Shown in pieces: positions 2,266-52,791 of a stretch of DNA of 64,000 nt. The DNA is from an uncultured Erysipelotrichaceae bacterium (GTDB lineage: Bacteria > Bacillota_I > Bacilli_A > RF39 > UBA660): the NCBI GenBank assembly GCA_902793315.1, contig CADBCT010000001.1, forward strand, positions 34,727 through 98,726, in the 5' to 3' direction. How positions within the stretch are numbered: the first letter of the stretch is position 1; the number at the start of each line of letters is the position of its first letter. A program made the position numbers and the translations under genes. The notes below the pieces were generated by a model. That model was not told the origin of the DNA and did not search any database. It was given only the letters and a program-made list of their open reading frames with translations.

Positions 2266-2715
2266 TCAATCTTTTCTTTGATTTTTAAAAAAAGAATTTA
2301 AGATTTTTTTTGATTCTAATGGACTTAAATTTGAAATAAAATTAACTTCAGGATTTATTTTATCCTTTTTAAAAATTTCTGTAATTATTTGCAGATTATT
2401 TAAATCGGAATTACTAAGAGCTGAATAAACATTTTTAATTCTAGCTTGCTTTATAGCACTTGCACACATAGGACATGGATCTAATGATATATAAATATCA
2501 CAATCATTTAAACGCCAATTATTCAACTTTTTTTGAGCTATTTTAATAGCATTTAATTCAGCATGTTCTAATACAGAATTATTTTTTTCTTTTTTATTAT
2601 ATCCAAAACCAATTATTTTGTTATCTTTAACAATTACTGCTCCTACTGGAACTTCTTTTATCCTATATGCTTTATATGCATATTTTATTGCTAAATCTAA
2701 AAACTCTTTTTTCAT
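2266..2715 (-). CDS. tadA: tRNA-specific adenosine deaminase (CMP/dCMP-type zinc deaminase)
   Basis: HAELNAI...PCPMCASAI zinc-binding motifs. Start placed at the internal ATG (MKKEFLDLAIKYAYKAY) because it is preceded by GGAGGAATT. The 28-codon upstream extension in the ORF track overlaps an SRP RNA. Confidence 0.85.
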   Translation of the reverse strand: MKKEFLDLAIKYAYKAYRIKEVPVGAVIVKDNKIIGFGYNKKEKNNSVLEHAELNAIKIAQKKLNNWRLNDCDIYISLDPCPMCASAIKQARIKNVYSALSNSDLNNLQIITEIFKKDKINPEVNFISNLSPLESKKILNSFFKNQRKD

Positions 2716-2730
2716 AATTCCTCCAAATAA

Positions 2731-2808
2731 AAAGTGCACATGAAAGGTGAATTTTAAGGCTGCTATCTTCCGATTCTGACCTGGTTCAATTTCTTTCATT
2801 GCACGTAT
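2731..2808 (-). ncRNA. ffs: Small signal recognition particle RNA (4.5S/scRNA-type SRP RNA)
   Basis: Minus strand reads GTGCAATGAAAGAAATTGAACCAGGTCAGAATCGGAAGATAGCAGCCTTAAAATTCACCTTTCATGTGCAC. The terminal helix GTGCA(A)ATGAAAG/CTTTCAT(C)GTGCAC closes a hairpin. The ACCAGGTCAG...GGAAG..AGCAGCC core matches the conserved SRP RNA domain IV (E. coli 4.5S: ACCAGGUCAGGUCCGGAAGGAAGCAGCC). A U-tract follows. In B. subtilis scr lies next to dnaX, so the position is syntenic. Confidence 0.6.
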
Positions 2809-2890
2809 ATATTTTATTATAAAAAATAAAAAAAGTAAATATTTGTTATTATTTTTATTTTTTAAGGAATATTTTTGCTATTTTTAGTTA

Positions 2891-2906
2891 TGTTTCACGT
2901 GGAACA
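2891..2906. promoter_or_regulatory. parS: parS site 1 (Spo0J/ParB centromere-like site)
   Basis: TGTTTCACGTGGAACA is the exact reverse complement of the B. subtilis parS consensus TGTTCCACGTGAAACA. Confidence 0.8.
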
Positions 2907-2918
2907 TTTATTATTTCT

Positions 2919-2932
2919 ATTTCCTGGGAAAT
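2919..2932. promoter_or_regulatory. Noc-binding-site (NBS)-like palindrome 1
   Basis: ATTTCCTGGGAAAT versus the B. subtilis NBS consensus ATTTCCCGGGAAAT (one central mismatch). 6-bp perfect inverted arms. Confidence 0.55.
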
Positions 2933-2952
2933 AATTTTGTTACTTTTAGTTA

Positions 2953-2968
2953 TGTTTCACGTGGAACA
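2953..2968. promoter_or_regulatory. parS: parS site 2
   Basis: TGTTTCACGTGGAACA, perfect match to the parS consensus (reverse complement). 62 bp from site 1. Confidence 0.8.
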
Positions 2969-2980
2969 TTTATTGTTTTT

Positions 2981-2994
2981 ATTTCCTGGGAAAT
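2981..2994. promoter_or_regulatory. NBS-like palindrome 2
   Basis: ATTTCCTGGGAAAT, identical to copy 1. 28 bp downstream of parS site 2. Confidence 0.55.
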
Positions 2995-3018
2995 AATTTT
3001 GTTACTTTTAGTTATGTA

Positions 3019-3034
3019 TGTTTCACGTGGAACA
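3019..3034. promoter_or_regulatory. parS: parS site 3
   Basis: TGTTTCACGTGGAACA. 66 bp from site 2 (unit with a 4-bp TGTA insertion). Confidence 0.8.
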
Positions 3035-3046
3035 TTTATTGTTTTT

Positions 3047-3060
3047 ATTTCCTGGGAAAT
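3047..3060. promoter_or_regulatory. NBS-like palindrome 3
   Basis: ATTTCCTGGGAAAT. The fourth repeat unit is truncated before this element. Confidence 0.55.
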
Positions 3061-3080
3061 AATTTTGTTACTTTTAGTTA

Positions 3081-3096
3081 TGTTTCACGTGGAACA
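3081..3096. promoter_or_regulatory. parS: parS site 4
   Basis: TGTTTCACGTGGAACA. 62 bp from site 3. Array ends here, before the gyrA terminator. Confidence 0.8.
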
Positions 3097-3100
3097 TTAA

Positions 3101-3127
3101 CAAAAAAAAGATACGTTTCTGTATCTT
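3101..3127 (-). terminator. Rho-independent terminator downstream of gyrA
   Basis: AAAAGATAC-GTTTCT-GTATCTTTT hairpin flanked by an A8/T8 run immediately after the gyrA stop. Confidence 0.7.
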
Positions 3128-5575
3128 TTATTGTTCTTCATTAGTTTCTTCAAATGCTTCTTCTTCTTTTTCAACTAAAGCTACTGTGGAAACTTTTTGT
3201 TCATCCTTAAGATTAATTAATCTAACTCCTTGTGTAGCACGTTTTAAAGTAGATACTTGATCTAATGGTAATTTAATAATAATACCGCTATTAGTCATAA
3301 TCATTAAATCTAATGGTGCATCTACTCTTAAACATTTCAATGAAGACATCATACCATTCTTTTCAGTAACATTAAGAGCTTTAACACCTTTACTACCTCT
3401 ATGTGTTAATCTGTATTCATCAACTACTGTTTGTTTTCCATATCCATTTTCTGTTACGATTAATACCATATCACCAGATGATACAACTTCTGCTCCTACT
3501 ACGATAGATCCATCAAGTTCCATACCTTTAACGCCAGAACTACTTCTTCCCATGCATCTAACTTCGTTTTCATTGAATCTAACTAATCTACCATTGCTAG
3601 CACCAATAACTATTTCTCTATTTCCATCAGTACTTTTAACACTGATTAACTCATCATCTTCTTTAAGAACAATAGCTATTTTTCCACTCTTTCTAATATT
3701 ATCAAATTCGTTGATACTAGTACGTTTTACAATTCCTTTTCGAGTTGCAAACATTAAATATTTAGTAAAATCATCATCTTGTTTTATATTTATTATCGAA
3801 CTAACGTTCTCATCTTTCTCTAGTGGTAATAGATTAATTATTGGTAAACCTTTAGATTGTCTAGAGAATTCTGGAATCTCATAACCTTTCATTCTATATA
3901 CTTTACCTTTATTTGAGAAGAATAAGATATAATCATGCGTTGATGATGAAATTAAATGTTCTACAAAATCTTCTTCATTAGTTGCCATACCTTTAATTCC
4001 TACACCACCACGGTTTTGAGTTCTATACGTATCACTCTTTAATCTCTTAATATACCCTTTATTTGTTAAATTAATTACAATATCTTCTTCTGGAATTAAA
4101 GACTCATCTTCAATATATTCAATAGCTGTCATATCAATACTTGTACGTCTTTCATCTCCATATTTTTGTTTAATTTCAAGCAATTCATTCTTAATTACTT
4201 CTAAAATCTTTGCTTCACTAGCTAAAATTGCTTTTAATTCCTCAATAGTTTTTAATAAATCAGTAAGTTCATTTTCAATCTTTTCACGCTCTAAACCTGT
4301 TAATCTACGTAATTTCATCTCTAAAATTGCATTTGATTGAACTTCTGTTAATTTAAACCTACTCATTAATGTATCTTTAGCTATTTCATCGGTTTTAGAT
4401 CCACGAATTACTTTAATTACTTCATCAATATTATCTAAAGCTATTTTTAAGCCTTCTAAAATATGTACTCTTTTTTCTGCTACATCTAGATCAAATCTAG
4501 TTCTTCTAATAATTACTTCCTTTTGATAATCAATATATTTTGCAATAATATCTTTTAATCCAAGAGTTTTAGGAACTCCTTGATCTAACATTAAGAAGAT
4601 AATTCCATAAGATGTTTGAAAAGATGTATGTTTATATAACTTATTTAATACTACTTGAGCATTAGCATCTCTTTTTAATGTAATTGTTATCTTAATACCA
4701 TTCTTTAAATCAGAATGATAATCAGAAATACCTTCAATAGTTTTATTATGAACTAATTCAGCTACTTTATTTTTTAAATCTAAAGTATTTATACCATAAG
4801 GTACTTCATCAATAATAATTTGTTGTTTTCCATTACTTTCTTCAATAGTAGCCCTACTTCTAACTGTAATAGTTCCCCTACCAGTTTCGTAAGCTTTTCT
4901 AATACCACTATTTCCAAGAATAATTGCTCCCGTAGGGAAATCTGGTCCTTTGATATATTTCATTAATTCATCTAATTCAATATCAGGATTATCAATATAT
5001 GCAACACATCCATCAATAACTTCACTTAAGTTATGAGGTGGAATATTTGTTGCCATACCAACAGCTATACCTGTAGTTCCATTAACTAAAATATTAGGAA
5101 ATCTAGATGGTAAAACAACTGGTTCTTTTTCGCTTTCATCAAAATTTGGTACAAAATCAACTGTATTTTTATTGATATTTCTTAATAATTCCAATGATAT
5201 CTTTGATAAACGAGATTCAGTGTAACGCATTGCAGCAGCACCATAACCCTCAATATTACCAAAATTACCATGTCCATCAATTAACATATATCTATAAGAG
5301 AAATCTTGAGCCATACGAACCATAGCTTCATAGATTGAAGAATCTCCATGTGGATGGAAATTACCCATAACTTCTCCGACAGTTTTAGCACTCTTTCTAT
5401 GAGGTTTATCAGGTGTATATCCAGAAGAATACATAGAATATAATATTCTTCTATGAACAGGCTTTAAACCATCTCTTAAGTCTGGAATAGCACGAGCTGT
5501 AATAACACTCATTGAATAGTCTAAAAATGAATCTTGTACTTCTTTTACTATATTGTTATTTTCTAACCTATCCAT
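3128..5575 (-). CDS. gyrA: DNA gyrase subunit A
   Basis: 815 aa. [19 protein letters not shown], catalytic Tyr region, GyrA-box-containing C-terminal beta-pinwheel repeats. Confidence 0.95.
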
Positions 5576-5584
5576 ACAAACCTC

Positions 5585-7510
5585 CTAAACATCCAAATTT
5601 GCATAAGTTGCATTTTCTTCTATAAATTCACGTCTTGGACCTACTTCTTCACCCATAAGCTTAGCAAAAACTTCATCTGCAGCTTGAATATCTTCAACAG
5701 TTATCTTTCTTAAAATACGTTGATTTATATCCATTGTTGTTTCATTTAACTCATCTGCATCCATTTCTCCTAAACCTTTCATACGAGCAATTTCATACTT
5801 AGTATTAGCGTCTAAACTTGCTAAATATTCATCTCTTTCAGCTTCATCTAAGACATATTTACGTGTTTTACCATGTGTAATTCTATATAACGGTGGTTGA
5901 GCAGCATAAACATGACCAGCTTCAACAATTGGTCTAAAGAAACGATAGAATAAAGTTAATAATAATACTCTTATATGACTACCATCAACATCAGCATCTG
6001 TCATAATAATAATTTTATGATATCTAAGTTTACTTAAATCGAACTCATCACCAATTCCAGTACCAAATGCTGTTATAATAGTACGAATTTCTTCATTACT
6101 TAAAGCTTTATCTAATCTAGCTTTCTCAACATTTAAAATCTTACCTCTAAGTGGAAGAATTGCTTGTGTCATAGCATCTCTACCTTTAATAGCAGATCCT
6201 CCAGCAGAATCACCCTCGACTAAGAAAATCTCACTGATTGTAGCATCTTTACTCTTACAATCATTAAGTTTTCCAAAGAAATTAGTAATATCTAAATCTC
6301 CTTTACGACGAGTTAATTCACGAGCTTTTTTAGCAGCTACTCTTGCTCTACTCGCAGTCATAGACTTTTCTAAGATAATACGAGCTTGATCAGGATTTTC
6401 TAATAAGAATCTTTCAAATGATTCTGAGAATATCTTATCTGCTATACCTCTAACTTCACTATTTCCTAATTTTGTCTTAGTTTGACCTTCAAATTGTGGA
6501 TTAGGATGTTTAATAGAAATTATCAATGTAATTCCTTCTCTTACATCATCACCTGTTAAAGGTTCATCTTTATCTTTTAATAAATTATTATTAGTTGCAT
6601 ATTTATTAAGTATTCTTGTTAAAGCTCTTCTTACTCCATCCTCATGCGTTCCACCCTCAGGTGTAGTAATATTATTAACAAATGAATAAATACTTGAATT
6701 ATATGTTTCATTATATTGAAGTGCTACTTCTACTTTAATATCTTTTTCTTCTCCCTCAATATAAACCACTGTTTCATGAAGTGGATTCTTATTCTTGTTA
6801 AGCATATTAACATATTCTATTAATCCACCTTCATAGTGGAAAGAATCTTTTTTATCTACTTCTCTATCATCATATAATGATATTCTTAAACCCTTATTTA
6901 AGAAAGCTAATTCTCTTAATCTAGTTCTTAAAATATCATAGTCATATACAGTAGTTTCATCAAAAATCTTAGGATCTGGTAAGAAATGAACACTTGTACC
7001 AGTACGATCTTTATCACATTTATCAATAATTTTTAGATCTTCTTCAGGATGTCCACCATTGTTAAACCGTTGATAGTAAACATTTCCATCACGATATACT
7101 TTTACTTCTAACCATTCACTTAAGGCGTTAACAACACTAGCACCAACTCCGTGAAGACCACCAGATACTTTATATCCTCCTCCACCAAATTTACCACCAG
7201 CATGTAATACTGTATAAACTGTTTCAACAGTACTTTTACCTGTTTTTGGATGTATTTCTACTGGTATACCACGTCCATCATCTTTTACAATAATACTATT
7301 ATCTTTACAAATAGTAACCTCAATATGAGAACAATATCCAGCTAATGCTTCATCAATCGCATTATCTACTATTTCCCAAACTAAATGATGTAATCCCCTA
7401 GAACTAGTAGTTCCAATATACATTCCCGGTCTTTTTCTTACTGCTTCTAGACCTTCTAATACTTGAATTGAGGATGAATCATACTCTTTTTTTACTTTTT
7501 CTTCTGCCAT
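5585..7510 (-). CDS. gyrB: DNA gyrase subunit B
   Basis: 641 aa. GHKL ATPase motifs ([29 protein letters not shown]), Toprim EGDSAGG, C-terminal GyrB tail. Confidence 0.95.
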
Positions 7511-8745: not shown

Positions 8746-9192
8746 TTAACTATTTTTATGGTTTCTTAAAATAATATCTAATCTGGAAGCTCTAGATAAT
8801 TGATTTTCTATCGATCTATATGAACAATTAACTATTATTTCACGATCATTATCAAAAACTATTTTAGTACTATTAAATTCCATTTTCTCAAGTTTTTTAA
8901 CTCTTTTTAAAGATATCCAAACACAATCATCAGAAGATGGTGATGTTGTTGGAAAAACAATTAAATTATCACTATCTTCAATTACTATAGGTACTTTATA
9001 TTCAGCACCTAAAATATTTTTAGCACCATTTTTTCTTCCTTCGTAGGTACTTCCAAAATACTTACAACTTTCTTCCATAATACTAAAAGTTTTTTGATTG
9101 ATAATATAACTGTCATTATCCTCATAAACCAAACTACTTTCCAGATCATTAGGTACTAAAGCTAATGTACCTTTATTAATTTCATATTTCAT
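8746..9192 (-). CDS. comK: ComK-family competence transcription factor
   Basis: From MKYEINKGTLALVPND (ATG preceded by AAGGGGGATAAT). Several blocks align to B. subtilis ComK: YEVNGATIAVLPEE/YEINKGTLALVPND, CRFFGSSYAGRKAGT/CKYFGSTYEGRKNGA, IFLFPTLSSTRPQCGWISH/LIVFPTTSPSSDDCVWISL, NSFENQVYRTAWL/RSIENQLSRASRL. Confidence 0.75.
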   Translation of the reverse strand: MKYEINKGTLALVPNDLESSLVYEDNDSYIINQKTFSIMEESCKYFGSTYEGRKNGAKNILGAEYKVPIVIEDSDNLIVFPTTSPSSDDCVWISLKRVKKLEKMEFNSTKIVFDNDREIIVNCSYRSIENQLSRASRLDIILRNHKNS

Positions 9193-9326
9193 ATTATCCC
9201 CCTTAATGAAAACAATCCTTCGTTTTCGTGCAAAATATATCATATAAATTTGTAGAAATTTGTCGAATTTTGTAGAAAATTCTTGTTTTCTATAAATATA
9301 TTACGTATTTTTTTGAGTTTTCCACA

Positions 9327-12063: not shown

Positions 12064-12197
12064 ACAATCCACAAAGAATTCCCAAAGTTATACACAACAA
12101 AGATATTTATATAATAAAGATAAAATGCTGTTTTCCACATTTTCCACAAATTTTTAATAAACAACATAAAAAAAGTTATCAACAAGGTTGTGAATAT
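12064..12197. promoter_or_regulatory. oriC: DnaA-box cluster between dnaA and rpmH (oriC upstream box region and dnaA promoter)
   Basis: ACAATCCACA (12064-12073), TTATACACA (12088-12096), TTTTCCACA x2 tandem (12131-12139, 12140-12148), TTATCAACA (12176-12184), TGTGAATAT (12189-12197). All within 1-2 mismatches of TTATCCACA or its reverse complement. Confidence 0.55.
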
Positions 12198-19164: not shown

Positions 19165-20430
19165 ATGTATCCAGATACTAAAGATGAAGTAGTACAATTA
19201 TATCTAGATGACATTATTCCAAATAGGTTTCAACCAAGAGAAGTATTTGATGAAAAAGCCTTAAAAGAATTAGCTGTATCTATTAAAGAACATGGTGTAA
19301 TACAACCAATAATTGTACGAAGTGTAAATGGCAAATATGAAATAATAGCTGGAGAAAGAAGATATAAAGCTTCAGCTTTAGCTGGTCTTACTAAAATTCC
19401 CGCTATTGTTAGAGATTTAGATGATAAAGAAAGTTCAAAAGTAGCTTTACTTGAAAACTTACAAAGAAAAAATTTAAATCCAATTGAGGAAGCGAAAACA
19501 TATCAAAAAATATTAGAAATAGATCAAATGACTCAAGAAGAATTAGCTAGAACAATGGGTAAAAGTCAATCAGCTGTAGCTAATAAATTAAGACTTCTTT
19601 CTTTACCAGATGAAATTCAAGAATATCTATTGAAAGAAGAATTATCAGAAAGACATGCTAGAGCACTACTTAATTTAGATGATGCTGAAAAACAAAAAGA
19701 AATGGCTAAAAAAGTTATTGATAATAAAATGAGTGTTAGGAATTTGGAAGCAGAAATTAAAGAAATGACTGGTAAAACTAAACCAAAACAAGAAGAAGCT
19801 TCTGAAACACCTGAAGTAATAGCTTCAACAAAAGCTTTTGTTAATGATAATCCATTAATTCCAACAGCTAAAGTTGAAGAAGATAAGTCAAACTATGGAA
19901 AAGTAACAATTGCACCACCAGAAGGAGAAGAAATGCCTTCTAGTAAATTTATAAATTATGGTGAAATAGATAAGGAAGAAGAAAAAACACCAATGCCTAT
20001 ACCAAATGTTATAACTTCAATAGATGTTAATGATGTTAAAGAGAATACCAATGATATTAAATCTGATGATACAAGCAATTCTGGAAACGCCTTAGATAGT
20101 TTGTTAAATTTAGGTAATCCCACATCATCTATACCGGCAAATGAATTTATAACACCAGCAGAAAAAATTGTAAAAACCGATTCATTAGAAGATCCTATAG
20201 AAGATACTTCTTCAGAATATTTTAATACATCAGATTTATCAAATATTGAATTACCACCAAGTATAATAAATCCTTCTGAAGAAGAAAATACTGGAACTTA
20301 TAGTATAGAAGAAGCAGTAGAAAAAATAAAAAATACTATAGAAGATTTAAAAAAGCATGGAATTAATCTAAATGCTGATGAAATGGATTTTGAAAAATCA
20401 TATCAAATGATTATAAAGATAGAAAAATAA
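19165..20430 (+). CDS. noc: Noc-like ParB-family protein (nucleoid occlusion protein paralogue) with a long low-complexity C-terminal extension
   Basis: The N-terminal 200 aa align to B. subtilis Noc/ParB: DIIPNRFQPR, GVIQPIIVR, EIIAGERRYKA, ALLENLQRKNL, AVANKLRLLSLP, SERHARALL. Position between rsmG and soj is the same as B. subtilis noc. Residues about 200-421 are E/S/T/N/P-rich with no Noc counterpart. Sigma-A-like promoter TTGAAA-N17-TATAAT at about 19094-19125. Confidence 0.7.
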   Translation: MYPDTKDEVVQLYLDDIIPNRFQPREVFDEKALKELAVSIKEHGVIQPIIVRSVNGKYEIIAGERRYKASALAGLTKIPAIVRDLDDKESSKVALLENLQRKNLNPIEEAKTYQKILEIDQMTQEELARTMGKSQSAVANKLRLLSLPDEIQEYLLKEELSERHARALLNLDDAEKQKEMAKKVIDNKMSVRNLEAEIKEMTGKTKPKQEEASETPEVIASTKAFVNDNPLIPTAKVEEDKSNYGKVTIAPPEGEEMPSSKFINYGEIDKEEEKTPMPIPNVITSIDVNDVKENTNDIKSDDTSNSGNALDSLLNLGNPTSSIPANEFITPAEKIVKTDSLEDPIEDTSSEYFNTSDLSNIELPPSIINPSEEENTGTYSIEEAVEKIKNTIEDLKKHGINLNADEMDFEKSYQMIIKIEK

Positions 20431-20523: not shown

Positions 20524-21324
20524 ATGGGTGATTCGATGGGAAAAATAATATCGTTAGTAAATCAAAAAGGTGGAGTTGGTAAGACAACTACTAGTATAAA
20601 TTTATCTGCTTCATTAGCAGTATTAGGTAAAAAAACACTTTTAATAGATTTAGATCCTCAAGGAAATACAACAACAGGTGTGGGAATTAACAAAGGAGAT
20701 ATTAATAAAAGTATTTATGAAGTTTTAACAGGCGAATGTAGCATTAAAGAAGCAATATTAAAAACAAAATACAAAGATTTTTTTGTTATACCATCAACAA
20801 TCAATTTAGCTGGATTAAATGCTGAATTTTTAGAAAAGAGTAGAACACAAGCAGGTTATAAAAAAGGAGAACAATTAAAGAATTGTCTTGCTGACATCAA
20901 AGATAGCTTCGATTATATAATTTTGGACTGTCCTCCAGCGCTTGATGTTATTACTACAAACGCTTTAACAGCTTCTAATTCTGTAATAATTCCAGTGCAA
21001 TGTGAATTTTTTGCTTTAGAGGGAATAACTCAACTATTAAAAACAATAATGTTAGCACAAAAAACTTTAAATCCTAACTTGGATATTGAAGGAGTTTTAT
21101 TAACAATGTTAGATTCAAGAACTAACTTAGGATTTGAAGTGGTTGAAGATATTAGAAGCTTCTTTAAAGAAAAAGTATATAACACAATTATTCCAAGATT
21201 AGTAAAACTAACAGAAGCTCCATCACATGGAGAACCTATAATAACTTATGAACCAAAAAGTAGAGGTGCAGAGGCTTACCTAAATTTAGCAAAGGAAGTG
21301 ATTGAAAGAAATGGAAACAAATAA
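20524..21324 (+). CDS. soj: Chromosome partitioning ATPase ParA/Soj
   Basis: Deviant Walker A KGGVGKTTT, DLDPQGN, ParA/MinD fold. Followed by spo0J. Confidence 0.92.
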   Translation: MGDSMGKIISLVNQKGGVGKTTTSINLSASLAVLGKKTLLIDLDPQGNTTTGVGINKGDINKSIYEVLTGECSIKEAILKTKYKDFFVIPSTINLAGLNAEFLEKSRTQAGYKKGEQLKNCLADIKDSFDYIILDCPPALDVITTNALTASNSVIIPVQCEFFALEGITQLLKTIMLAQKTLNPNLDIEGVLLTMLDSRTNLGFEVVEDIRSFFKEKVYNTIIPRLVKLTEAPSHGEPIITYEPKSRGAEAYLNLAKEVIERNGNK

Positions 21325-22222
21325 TATTTCTGAAAGTGGAATTCCTAAAAGAAGAGCTTTAGGAAAAGGATTAGAAGAATTGTTTAATAACGAAGTCATT
21401 GATTATAGTGCTGTAGAAGAAAAAATAGTTAATGAAACACCAAGAGAAGAAATAGAAATGTTAAACTTAGATGAATTAAGAAGTAATCCATATCAACCTA
21501 GAAAAAATTTTGATGAAGAAGCACTAAAAGAATTGGCTGAATCAATTAAAGAACATGGAGTAATCCAACCGATAATAGCTAAAAAATCAATCAAAGGATA
21601 TGAAATAATAGCTGGAGAAAGAAGAGTAAAAGCATCAAGAATGGCAGGTTTAACAGAAATCCCTGCTATTGTAAAAGATTTTAATGATAAACAAATGATG
21701 GAAATCGCGTTACTTGAAAATCTTCAAAGAGAAGATTTATCAGCAATTGAAGAAGCATCAGCTTATAAAAAATTACAAGAGACTTTAGTATTAACTCAAG
21801 AAGAATTAGCAAAGAGATTAGGTAAAAGTAGAAGTCATATAACAAATATGCTAGGGTTGCTTTCTTTACCTCAAGATATTCAACAACAGATAGTTAATAA
21901 AGAATTATCAATGGGGCATGCAAGAGTTTTAAGTAAATTACAAGATTCTGAGCAACAAGAAGAATTAGCAAAAAGAGTAATATCAGAAGGAATAAGTGTA
22001 AGAGAATTAGAAAAGTTGACTATGGAGCCAACAATAATTAAAACTAATCCTCAAAAGAAGAAACAAGAAAAAAATTCTCAATATGTTTATCTTCAAACAG
22101 AATTAAGTGAAAAGTTGGGTACGAAAGTAACAATTAAAAAGAATAAAATAGAAATTAGTTTTGTAAATGATAATGATTTAAATAGATTATTAGAATATAT
22201 GAATATTGAGGTTGAAGAGTAA
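21302..22222 (+). CDS. spo0J: Chromosome partitioning protein ParB/Spo0J
   Basis: 306 aa. ParB box motifs (GVIQPIIAK, EIIAGERRVKASRMAGL, LLENLQRE), HTH (AKRLGKSRSHITNMLGLLSLP), C-terminal dimerisation domain. Confidence 0.92.
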   Translation: MKEMETNNISESGIPKRRALGKGLEELFNNEVIDYSAVEEKIVNETPREEIEMLNLDELRSNPYQPRKNFDEEALKELAESIKEHGVIQPIIAKKSIKGYEIIAGERRVKASRMAGLTEIPAIVKDFNDKQMMEIALLENLQREDLSAIEEASAYKKLQETLVLTQEELAKRLGKSRSHITNMLGLLSLPQDIQQQIVNKELSMGHARVLSKLQDSEQQEELAKRVISEGISVRELEKLTMEPTIIKTNPQKKKQEKNSQYVYLQTELSEKLGTKVTIKKNKIEISFVNDNDLNRLLEYMNIEVEE

Positions 22223-52729: not shown

Positions 52730-52791
52730 TATATTAATAACGCATTTGATTACTATGACAAGTATTTTGTCATGGCGGAAGGAGAGATAGT

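Follow-up and report, generated by a model that had tools for sequence, protein, structure and literature searches.

The question that is raised by this locus is why a short interval beside gyrA should hold, in regular alternation, the palindromes that are associated with two different proteins of the ParB family. ParB and Noc are textbook examples of diverged paralogues, the former acting in chromosome segregation and the latter in division-site control, and their respective sites, parS and the Noc-binding site (NBS), differ by two bases in each half-site and are distributed differently over the chromosome. A preliminary description of the window, i.e., the whole 64-kb stretch of DNA that was analysed, had drawn attention to the alternating sites. 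Its observation of the repeat and of the sites was confirmed, with the corrections that are given below, and its interpretation was partly supported.

The repeat array and its position near oriC

A single tandem array was found in the window by TRF, at positions 2846-3098 (period 62 bp, 4.0 copies, score 393; neither the array nor its palindromes are assigned to a strand), with 90% matches between the copies. It is composed of four units, one of which is 66 bp long because four bases, ATGT, are duplicated. The array contains four exact copies of TGTTTCACGTGGAACA, which are located at 2891-2906 (nearest to ffs), 2953-2968, 3019-3034 and 3081-3096 (nearest to gyrA), with start-to-start spacings of 62, 66 and 62 bp, exactly as was first reported. 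The reverse complement of this 16-mer is TGTTCCACGTGAAACA, and all four are exact copies of the palindrome TGTTNCACGTGNAACA of the Firmicutes chromosomal type. The exact palindrome, its proximity to the origin and the gene for a parS-type Spo0J in the window all support the view that these are genuine parS sites. A search of the 64 kb in which up to three mismatches were permitted gave eight strand-hits as compared to 0.23 expected, a number that was reached in none of 100 shuffles. No further parS was found in the window outside of the array in this search, nor in one with up to two mismatches, which agrees with the earlier statement that there are none elsewhere in the 64 kb.

A second palindrome with the core ATTTCCTGGGAAAT is present three times, at 2919, 2981 and 3047, each time 28 bp past the start of a parS, and this part of the original observation was also reproduced. 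With its flanks it reads TATTTCCTGGGAAATA, at 2918-2933, 2980-2995 and 3046-3061; all three copies were recognised by sequence match and the first additionally by the clade consensus. This sequence matches the NBS consensus TATTTCCCGGGAAATA at 15 of 16 positions, differing in one central base, and the specificity positions 1 (A) and 6 (C) are of the NBS type in both half-sites of these copies. The three intact NBS lie within 145 bp of the window, and no other NBS with up to three mismatches was found in the 64 kb, a stretch in which approximately one NBS would be expected at the density of B. subtilis. The fourth unit had been described as truncated; instead, the terminal degenerate unit holds a decayed fourth NBS, TATTTTTTAAGGAATA, with five mismatches, at 2856-2871, which was recognised from its register with the TRF consensus unit. 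The order of the sites in the array is S-N-S-N-S-N-S (S, parS; N, NBS), and the centres of parS and NBS within a unit are 27 bp apart. The centre of the NBS in the window, CCTGGG, is a minority variant that occurs in 17% of the sites of the clade. Restriction avoidance was considered as its source and was rejected, CCGG not being depleted in the window (15 occurrences, 9.1 expected); a CpG-to-TpG transition that was then copied along with the unit accounts for this centre more simply.

The array sits between the terminator of gyrA and the promoter of ffs. Its conserved upstream neighbour, gyrA (3128-5575, minus strand), was identified by the NCBIfam gyrA model (1152 bits) and by synteny, and its stop codon is followed by a terminator-like hairpin (GATAC...GTATC) and T8 at 3103-3130 on the minus strand. 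This hairpin was recognised by eye, having been missed by the scanner, which needs at least three G-C pairs. Directly downstream of the array lies the SRP RNA gene ffs (2721-2813, minus strand; Rfam RF00169, 54.8 bits with a gathering score of 40), and a sequence scan revealed a promoter-like site upstream of it, consisting of TTTACT, a 17-nt spacer and TAAAAT (2811-2839, minus strand). The earlier placement of the array in the gyrA-tadA interval therefore holds on the side of gyrA; on the other side the neighbour is ffs and not tadA directly. Its nearness to the origin stands, as the DnaA-box cluster that marks oriC is found at 12088-12184 on the plus strand, approximately 9 kb away, and the GC skew changes its sign beside this cluster, at about 12 kb.

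A DnaA-box cluster was also sought inside the array and was absent. A CRISPR test showed that the full 62-bp unit is repeated, the "spacer" included, and there were no cas genes among the neighbours. The RNA folding score of the array (z = -7.8) is uninformative because repeated palindromes of any kind would fold in this way, and with Rfam blank within the array, a function as an RNA or a hairpin was set aside. The true copy number of the window array is uncertain; for the same species, short-read contigs have two, three or at least four parS, or a break or a gap at the array. Such arrays break short-read assemblies right beside oriC in an abundant uncultured gut lineage.

Palindromes and spacers in related genomes

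The genomes of relatives were scanned with one genome per species, using a composite pattern in which the flank and centre positions of the NBS were left free. At least 120 of the species representatives, all of them MAGs from uncultured gut Bacilli, carry the parS and NBS composite, which lies in the slot between gyrA and dnaX in approximately 115 of them. The array had been taken for a unique arrangement; however, the same composite recurs in this slot in more than 100 species, and the GyrA of these relatives is only 56-88% identical to that of the window. At the positions that were left free, the relatives have the flanking T in 98% and the flanking A in 97% of the sites, and the centre is CG in 110 of 137 (80%) and CA/TG in 23 of 137, the background frequency of C or G being about 13%; 80% of the clade sites match the NBS at 16 of 16 positions. 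The emergence of the NBS consensus at positions that were unselected by the pattern argues that the second palindrome is a genuine NBS, as had been supposed. Moreover, when the loci were picked by GyrA alone, with at least 600 bp downstream, at least one NBS was present in 39 of 49, nearly all of them together with parS, and neither site was found in the 3-4 kb of the upstream coding sequence of these loci. No publication on alternating parS and NBS was found in the searchable literature, which is in line with the earlier assertion that the arrangement was undescribed.

An alignment of related loci had been suggested as a check on the conservation of the palindromes, and both proved to be kept. 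In 12 arrays from different species, the parS were 93% and the NBS 97% identical, whereas the spacers were 41% identical, with a shuffled baseline of 40%. The palindromes are conserved and the spacers are random, and therefore the module must have been amplified independently many times, with the palindromes alone being constrained. Close relatives have strictly alternating arrays with units of approximately 60 bp (4-5 copies), 77 bp (about 14 copies), 105 bp (6 copies) and 112 bp (6 copies), and across all of the relatives the unit length ranges from 60 to 393 bp.

The 62-bp spacing had been interpreted as a constraint that keeps the sites on the same face of the DNA. This range of unit lengths and the lack of helical periodicity in 261 adjacent parS-parS spacings (power 2.7) contradict that view and rule out a lineage-wide helical phasing of parS with parS. 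The phasing of parS with NBS is only suggestive: in the raw data none of 5000 nulls reached the observed value, but once the related spacers had been collapsed the phasing weakened to a mixed picture, the value being reached by 3, 592 and 221 of 5000 nulls (3 in one set and 592 in the other). The palindromes never overlap, the smallest distance between the centres of parS and NBS being 18-21 bp, and because of this a direct competition of the paralogues for one site, which had been offered as an alternative, is unlikely. Hetero-adjacent pairs of sites numbered 408 as compared to the 337 that were expected from orders shuffled within the loci, and the 1:1 ratio of parS to NBS in the tandem arrays is partly trivial because the copying of a unit takes the neighbouring site along.

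The two putative reader proteins

Genes for putative readers of both sites are located in the window. Spo0J/ParB (21302-22222, plus strand), the putative parS reader, has the specificity residues R-M-S-G, the CTP motifs GERR and ENLQR and the C-terminal dimerisation domain of ParB, and its gene is adjacent to that of the Soj/ParA ATPase (20524-21324, plus strand). The putative NBS reader is a Noc-family paralogue of 421 aa (19165-20430, plus strand) that was recognised by profile, structure and residue comparison. It keeps the GERR and ENLQR motifs and has Q135-K141-S146-R163, with a spacing equal to that of Q158-K164-K169-R186 in B. subtilis; 12 orthologues share Q, K and R without exception, and at position 146 they have S, G or A. 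According to the published rules, R173 and G201 lead to parS, and Q173 and R201 together with K or R at 179 or 184 lead to NBS, the specificity residues of Noc being Q-K-K-R (PMC7383237). The reader has S and not K at position 184, a difference that K179 is predicted to make tolerable. By their residues, Spo0J (R-M-S-G) would be of the parS type and the paralogue (Q-K-S-R) of the NBS type, which bears out the claim that both cognate paralogues are encoded in the window.

The label "Noc-like", which had been given to the paralogue, is partly justified. The ParB-family fold and the NBS-type residues speak for it, and the protein is nearest to the Noc structures and the Noc HMM, with KorB also among its structural relatives. 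However, its score against NCBIfam TIGR04285 is 299.7 bits with a cutoff of 315, the match covering only profile positions 1-220 of 255, and no N-terminal amphipathic membrane helix was found in it. The maximal ORF begins at approximately residue 22-25 of Noc, and the paralogue family as a whole shares the N-terminal sequence MYPDxKDEVV, with no extension upstream of it. Noc requires an N-terminal amphipathic helix of about 10 aa for nucleoid occlusion (PMC8429893). The paralogue further has a linker of approximately 170 aa with conserved motifs that is followed by a small C-terminal domain, and no Pfam domain was found in the linker and C-terminal region (best E = 0.13). In the AlphaFold2 model, the linker is predicted to be disordered and is accompanied by a small helix-strand-strand domain, the confident part being the ParB/Noc core. 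Judging by these features and by the concentration of its putative NBS at the centromere in the window, the helix-less Noc-type protein is probably a second origin-bound adaptor rather than a classical chromosome-wide nucleoid-occlusion factor.

A probable loading array for two clamps and the alternatives

We consider it probable that the repeat is a composite, origin-proximal and centromere-like loading array for two CTP clamps of the ParB family. The loading platform that was suggested in the preliminary description fits the identities of the sites, their conservation in the lineage and the two cognate readers, from which we infer the binding itself. A dimer of Spo0J/ParB would nucleate at the perfect parS of each 62-bp unit, and the Noc-family paralogue, which is encoded 16 kb away, would nucleate at the near-perfect NBS. 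The array may have been born from the tandem amplification of one parS-NBS module, and its multiple copies would make the loading of both clamps faster. Once loaded, the clamps would slide over the shared oriC-proximal DNA and form a mixed nucleoprotein complex in which the two proteins may cooperate, and the conserved short motifs in the long linker of the Noc-type protein may recruit some partner. The same pairing at the same spot in more than 100 related species points to an undescribed two-protein centromere. A more far-reaching version, which we put forward tentatively, is a two-clamp centromere that is common to a large clade of uncultured gut Bacilli and whose partition site would consist of obligatorily paired ParB and Noc-derived sites. 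The paralogue, having lost its membrane binding and gained a motif-rich linker, would then form with ParB a mixed complex at the origin, perhaps with helical phasing, and might serve, e.g., in origin anchoring, the regulation of SMC/ParA or the control of replication initiation.

It is also conceivable, although unlikely, that the two proteins counteract each other. A Noc-type protein on the NBS would then be a roadblock that limits the sliding of the ParB clamps from parS, so that the partition complex is confined or that gyrA, oriC or ffs is shielded from ParB spreading. The tight interleaving of parS and NBS without any overlap would suit such an insulation, as would the many relatives in which one or two NBS on the gyrA (oriC-proximal) side precede a run of parS (NSSSS) and the final element before dnaX, which is parS in 95 loci and NBS in 24. 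However, many of the N-first loci come from one human-gut species group and are therefore not independent. Moreover, in the window, as in several of the alternating arrays, parS is outermost at both ends, and hence the NBS do not bound the array; the NBS as an outer boundary of the cluster was rejected because it does not fit the order of the sites in the window.

We regard it as very unlikely that the multiplicity of parS alone matters, i.e., that the array is an ordinary multi-parS centromere in which the NBS are passengers, either decayed parS or a neutral copied neighbour. In this lineage parS generally occurs in clusters of 2-10, a minority of the related loci have parS only, and tandem duplication copies any neighbour automatically. 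However, passengers would not be expected to be 97% identical across species amid spacers at the random level, nor to yield the exact NBS consensus at the free positions, including both specificity positions. In addition, the NBS copies are better kept than the parS copies in one related locus (L137), non-tandem clusters retain several NBS amid unrelated spacers, and the window encodes the cognate Q-K-x-R reader.

A role of the palindromes mainly as operators, through which ParB-family proteins would regulate ffs-tadA-dnaX, much as KorB does or as in ParB-mediated silencing, seems hardly credible. KorB, a structural relative of the paralogue, is a CTP-dependent repressor of the ParB family, and the end of the array is approximately 50 bp upstream of the promoter-like site of ffs. 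However, the sites have the canonical sequences of chromosomal centromeres and NBS, the length of the cluster (up to 2.5 kb) and its place relative to the downstream genes vary widely between species, and the intact units fall outside of the -35/-10 region. Finally, a neutral recent VNTR, an assembly artefact or a dispersed REP/MITE-like copy, the last of which had been named at the outset as a counter-explanation, can practically be dismissed, the dispersed-repeat and artefact versions being largely refuted: the units are near-identical and their number differs among assemblies of one species, with contig breaks at the array, but there is no second copy in the window, the locus is kept consistently between gyrA and dnaX in more than 100 species, each with units of its own, the viral, plasmid and phage collections contained no match to the array, and a long-read MAG (L067), in which the array extends over 2.5 kb and has 9 parS and 10 NBS, shows that the arrays are not short-read artefacts.

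The proposed loading array for two clamps shares features with several known systems. As in the parS/Spo0J-Soj system of the B. subtilis type, the same 16-bp palindrome is found near the origin, and a ParB with the R...G residues and the CTP motifs is encoded beside soj. However, parS sites occur one by one across hundreds of kb in B. subtilis, whereas all of those in the 64-kb window lie within approximately 200 bp and form a tandem repeat that is interleaved with the sites of a second paralogue. The 15/16 match of the second site and the Q, K and R residues and CTP motifs of its putative reader resemble Noc and NBS of B. subtilis and S. aureus. The known NBS are dispersed through the half to two-thirds of the chromosome that is nearest to the origin (PMC5540599, PMC8429893), whereas those in the 64 kb that were examined are clustered with parS. 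The paralogue also departs from Noc in lacking the 10-aa membrane helix, in its conserved linker of approximately 170 aa and in its score below the NCBIfam cutoff for Noc.

Among plasmids, the iterated centromere sopC of the F plasmid (cf. PMC3597684) is composed of tandem 43-bp repeats, each with an inverted repeat that is bound by SopB. The window array is similar in being a direct-repeat tandem array with a 16-bp ParB-family palindrome in each unit and in having a variable copy number that is probably higher than needed. As far as is known, plasmid arrays serve one ParB-family protein and lie beside their own parAB, whereas the window array has two kinds of sites per unit. Unlike sopC, it is chromosomal, 18 kb from soj-spo0J, and shows no similarity to plasmid or phage records. 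By analogy, the paralogue could also be likened to RicO of S. aureus, RocS of S. pneumoniae and RacA of B. subtilis, each of which is a second DNA-binding protein at origin sites alongside ParB. RicO is a sequence-specific origin-proximal binder that organises or positions the origin beside ParB (bioRxiv 10.64898/2026.03.06.710092), and RocS is described in the same terms (PMC13042908). The three proteins are not known to be ParB paralogues and have a membrane-binding helix, whereas the second protein in the window, in which no membrane anchor can be recognised, would be a CTP clamp of the ParB/Noc family whose putative sites alternate with parS at the base-pair scale.

If both sites are kept side by side at a centromere, an unstudied functional coupling of two CTP clamps would be implied, which would deserve attention all the more since the membrane helix is missing from the Noc-type protein of this lineage. 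The arrays would be a natural substrate on which to ask whether clamps that are loaded tens of bp apart coexist, collide or co-condense. Additionally, the ParB/Noc-type proteins of 412-467 aa with the conserved linker represent a previously unannotated family, its members currently being labelled just "ParB/RepB/Spo0J family partition protein". NBS might, moreover, have first split from parS among neighbouring copies in a tandem centromere array, a setting that the alternating arrays may still reflect, and they would illustrate a concrete route by which a new protein-DNA specificity pair may arise inside a tandem array.

Structure and location of the parS–NBS array

The tandem repeat at 2846-3098 (period 62 bp, 4.0 copies) carries four exact copies of parS, the ParB site, as TGTTTCACGTGGAACA at 2891, 2953, 3019 and 3081, which bears out the preliminary description; the Firmicutes parS, TGTTCCACGTGAAACA, is its reverse complement. 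No further match to TGTTTCACGTGGAACA was found in the 64 kb at up to three mismatches (chance expectation 0.23), as had also been claimed, and the observed number was reached by no shuffle. Three copies of ATTTCCTGGGAAAT are present at 2919, 2981 and 3047, which, when read with their flanks as TATTTCCTGGGAAATA, are identical in 15/16 positions to the Noc-binding site (NBS) TATTTCCCGGGAAATA and deviate, as first described, in one central base only. According to Jalal et al. (PMC7383237), each half-site of NBS departs from that of parS at positions 1 and 6 alone; in the window copies, both positions are of the NBS type (A and C) in both halves. The last unit, initially considered to be truncated, is instead degenerate, because a decayed fourth NBS copy, now TATTTTTTAAGGAATA, is present at 2856-2871, while the 66-bp unit originated from a 4-bp ATGT duplication. 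The rest of the window contained no NBS at up to three mismatches and no parS at up to two. The copy number in the window is uncertain, since the same-species short-read contigs have two, three or at least four parS or break at the array. Such arrays systematically break assemblies beside oriC, and the copy numbers that are reported for them are unreliable. Very often, short-read contigs from this lineage stop, or contain an N-gap, less than a few hundred bp past gyrA, as was observed for the contigs L002 (end at 6592), L003 (end at 6553) and L001 (6534-6633) and for many of the loci that were retrieved by GyrA (L124-L203). The arrays themselves are real, because a long-read MAG (L067) carries one of 2.5 kb.

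The array is located about 9 kb from oriC, based on the sign switch of the GC skew at ~12 kb, a cluster of four DnaA-box-like sites just upstream of dnaA (12088-12184) and the minus-strand gene order dnaA, dnaN, a ComK-family ORF, recF, gyrB and gyrA. The gyrA stop is followed by a hairpin and a T8 run, both recognised by eye, and then by the array. A promoter-like site (2839-2811, minus strand) and the SRP RNA gene ffs (2813-2721, minus strand) lie beyond it, followed by tadA and dnaX. The placement on the gyrA side and proximal to oriC was therefore correct, but the array lies in the gyrA-ffs gap and not directly beside tadA, as ffs intervenes. The other side of oriC has rsmG, the 421-aa ParB-family gene, soj and spo0J. 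The maximal tadA ORF (2266-2799, minus strand) overlaps ffs; the true start codon of tadA is the ATG at ~2715, which is preceded by a GGAGG ribosome-binding site, and a protein of 149 aa that matches exactly in public assemblies confirms this. The placement of the ComK-family ORF (8746-9243, minus strand) between dnaN and recF is shared by at least 23 related loci, and an L31-Firmicutes ribosomal-protein leader was matched at 52753-52784 on the plus strand (36.4 bits; gathering score 33.3).

Conservation of the composite in related genomes

With every bacterial and archaeal species represented by a single genome, a scan for parS lying 5-35 bp from TTTCC-NN-GGAAA identified at least 120 species-representative genomes (L004-L123). 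Nearly all of the listed matches, which came from gut and rumen samples, were MAGs labelled uncultured Bacilli, Erysipelotrichaceae, Tenericutes, Mycoplasma sp. or Clostridium sp. CAG, and all of the genomes compared were MAGs. As real parS sites are numerous in bacteria, we roughly estimated that a few dozen co-occurrences of the two patterns would be expected by chance across the collection, and therefore used tests that could not be biased by the pattern selection. Among the matches listed, the free flank positions of 137 sites were T in 98% and A in 97%, and the free centre was CG in 110 sites and CA/TG, the variant of the window, in 23, with C and G each having a background of ~13-14%. 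Since the free positions reproduce the consensus so far from background, the selected sites are, judged by their sequence, full NBS sites. About 115 of the 120 listed clusters lie between the gyrA 3' end and dnaX, with GyrA proteins that are 56-88% identical to that of the window. In an independent sample of 80 metagenome loci, which were fetched by the GyrA C-terminus alone, both sites were found downstream of gyrA in nearly all of the loci with enough sequence, with at least one NBS in 39 of the 49 that had at least 600 bp downstream, and the upstream coding DNA (3-4 kb) was free of both. 

True tandem repeats covered the cluster in 29 of 121 loci among the matches listed, of which about 20 combined a single parS with a single NBS in each unit (periods of 62-393 bp); the others of the 121 were irregular clusters of 1-9 parS with 0-10 NBS. 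Alternating arrays of close relatives had units of ~60 bp x 4-5 (L129), 105 bp x 6 (L128), 112 bp x 6 (L151) and 77 bp x ~14 (L137, 4295-5350), the last with the CCTGGG centre of the window, and apparent NBS-only arrays really alternate with parS copies that are off only at the outermost base. In L137, the NBS was better kept than parS, many copies of which had 1-3 mismatches. Across 12 arrays from different species, identity was 93% for parS and 97% for NBS, and 41% for the spacers compared with 40% when shuffled. Taken together, the free positions, synteny, independent sample, array types and conservation show, at the level of sequence, that both palindromes and their proximity at this locus are under long-term selection and that the parS-NBS module was amplified repeatedly and independently.

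Three architectures were distinguished. The sites alternate strictly in the window and in its nearer relatives; a human-gut group (GyrA 64-66% identical) has one or two NBS towards gyrA, proximal to oriC, and then a run of parS; and the third type has parS only. In the human-gut group (L166-L203), a single perfect NBS was observed ~130 bp after gyrA, with 2-10 parS ~280 bp further. Although 62 bp does correspond numerically to six helical turns, the proposed location of the sites on the same face is not conserved, as adjacent parS-parS distances had no helical periodicity (power 2.7). The parS-NBS centre distances peaked near 26, 36, 47 and 57 bp (27 bp, and 35 or 39 bp, in the window), and their Fourier power at 10.5-11.5 bp was matched by 0/5000 uniform nulls in the raw data. 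When related spacers were collapsed, the signal persisted in the GyrA-selected set (3/5000 nulls, n=31) but was gone in the pattern-selected set (592/5000), with 221/5000 for the combined sets, and hence this phasing is suggestive only. The two sites never overlap, their smallest centre distance being 18-21 bp.

None of 2.9 million viral contigs contained the composite, and the window array had no similarity to plasmid and phage records. The flanks of L004-L123 contained, among the matches listed, 74 full NBS (TATTTCC-NN-GGAAATA) outside the parS clusters in ~822 kb, which is far above chance by our rough composition-based estimate, and therefore some species of the clade also have scattered NBS; the window has none in the 61 kb outside its array. 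A contig labelled Candidatus Moraniibacteriota (CPR; L099, 7273-7805) has a 186 bp x 2.9 repeat beside dnaA-dnaN with two parS per unit, which matches the loose NBS pattern and not the full consensus.

Spo0J and the Noc-type protein

The window encodes a putative cognate reader for each site, in line with the preliminary description. The four specificity positions of Spo0J (21302-22222) are R-M-S-G, and it also has the CTP motifs GERR and ENLQR and a ParB C-terminal domain; the Noc-type protein (19165-20430, 421 aa) has Q135-K141-S146-R163, with spacing identical to Q158-K164-K169-R186 of B. subtilis Noc. Specificity for parS was assigned to R173/G201 and that for NBS to Q173/R201 plus K or R at position 179 or 184 (PMC7383237). 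The affinity of the Noc-type protein for an NBS with the CCTGGG centre is a prediction, as is the influence of S at position 184. The protein is 51% identical to Spo0J across the N-terminal and DNA-binding domains; its nearest solved structures are Noc (217 bits) compared with ~180 bits for ParB/Spo0J, and it scored 299.7 bits against the NCBIfam Noc model, below the cutoff of 315 (Spo0J, 242 bits).

Its maximal ORF starts at a position that aligns to Noc residue ~22-25, and therefore, unlike Noc, it does not have the N-terminal 10-aa amphipathic helix, which is needed for the membrane binding and nucleoid occlusion by Noc (PMC8429893). It also differs from Noc in a ~170-aa segment between the DNA-binding domain and a small C-terminal domain. 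AlphaFold2 predicted a ParB/Noc core (1-202), a disordered region (205-373) and a helix-strand-strand domain (381-419), and a Pfam search of the linker and C-terminal half gave no match. The best 120 relatives in the database were all 412-467 aa at full coverage, and their sole annotation was 'ParB/RepB/Spo0J family partition protein [Bacilli bacterium]'; the protein belongs to a family of 412-467 aa without a name. Across 12 aligned relatives, there was no variation in the short N-terminus, at Q135, K141 and R163 or in the CTP motifs, and the linker motifs AFVNxNPLIPTA, SNYGKVTIAPPEG, KFINYGE, LDSLLNLGN, FITPAEKIVKTD and DYF were conserved. The Spo0J C-terminal motif ISFVNDNDL is similar to the linker motif AFVNDNPL, which could be a remnant of the ParB C-terminal domain or a coincidence.

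A proposed composite loading platform near the origin

In the literature, NBS sites are scattered (PMC5540599, PMC8429893). In the full-text literature searched, which covers a minority of subscription-journal papers, we encountered no account of parS and NBS sites that adjoin or alternate, in agreement with the initial claim of novelty, or of a helix-less Noc paralogue with a long linker. Each component can be assigned to a known family; neither the arrangement nor the protein variant corresponds to a described system. The evidence best supports a composite loading array, in which ParB-CTP clamps would bind and nucleate at parS and Noc-type CTP clamps at NBS, tens of bp away, with both spreading across the same origin-proximal DNA, where they may cooperate. 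Its main rival is antagonism, in which the protein on NBS would block the sliding of ParB; the architecture with one NBS before a run of parS (NSSSS) favours it, but the window array ends in parS, which does not. Readings of the array as a passenger, an operator, a VNTR or artefact, or a dispersed repeat are each contradicted by specific results.

Because the Noc-type protein has no membrane helix, and because its linker, which may contribute to its function, is conserved and rich in motifs, we infer that it would be an origin-bound adaptor and not a classical nucleoid occlusion factor. Such a role is plausible, since in B. subtilis the timing of the Z-ring is under the joint influence of Spo0J and Noc (PMC6852036), in S. 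aureus Noc holds back the initiation of replication (PMC5540599), and in cocci separate origin-anchoring adaptors operate next to ParB, namely RicO (bioRxiv 10.64898/2026.03.06.710092) and RocS (PMC13042908).
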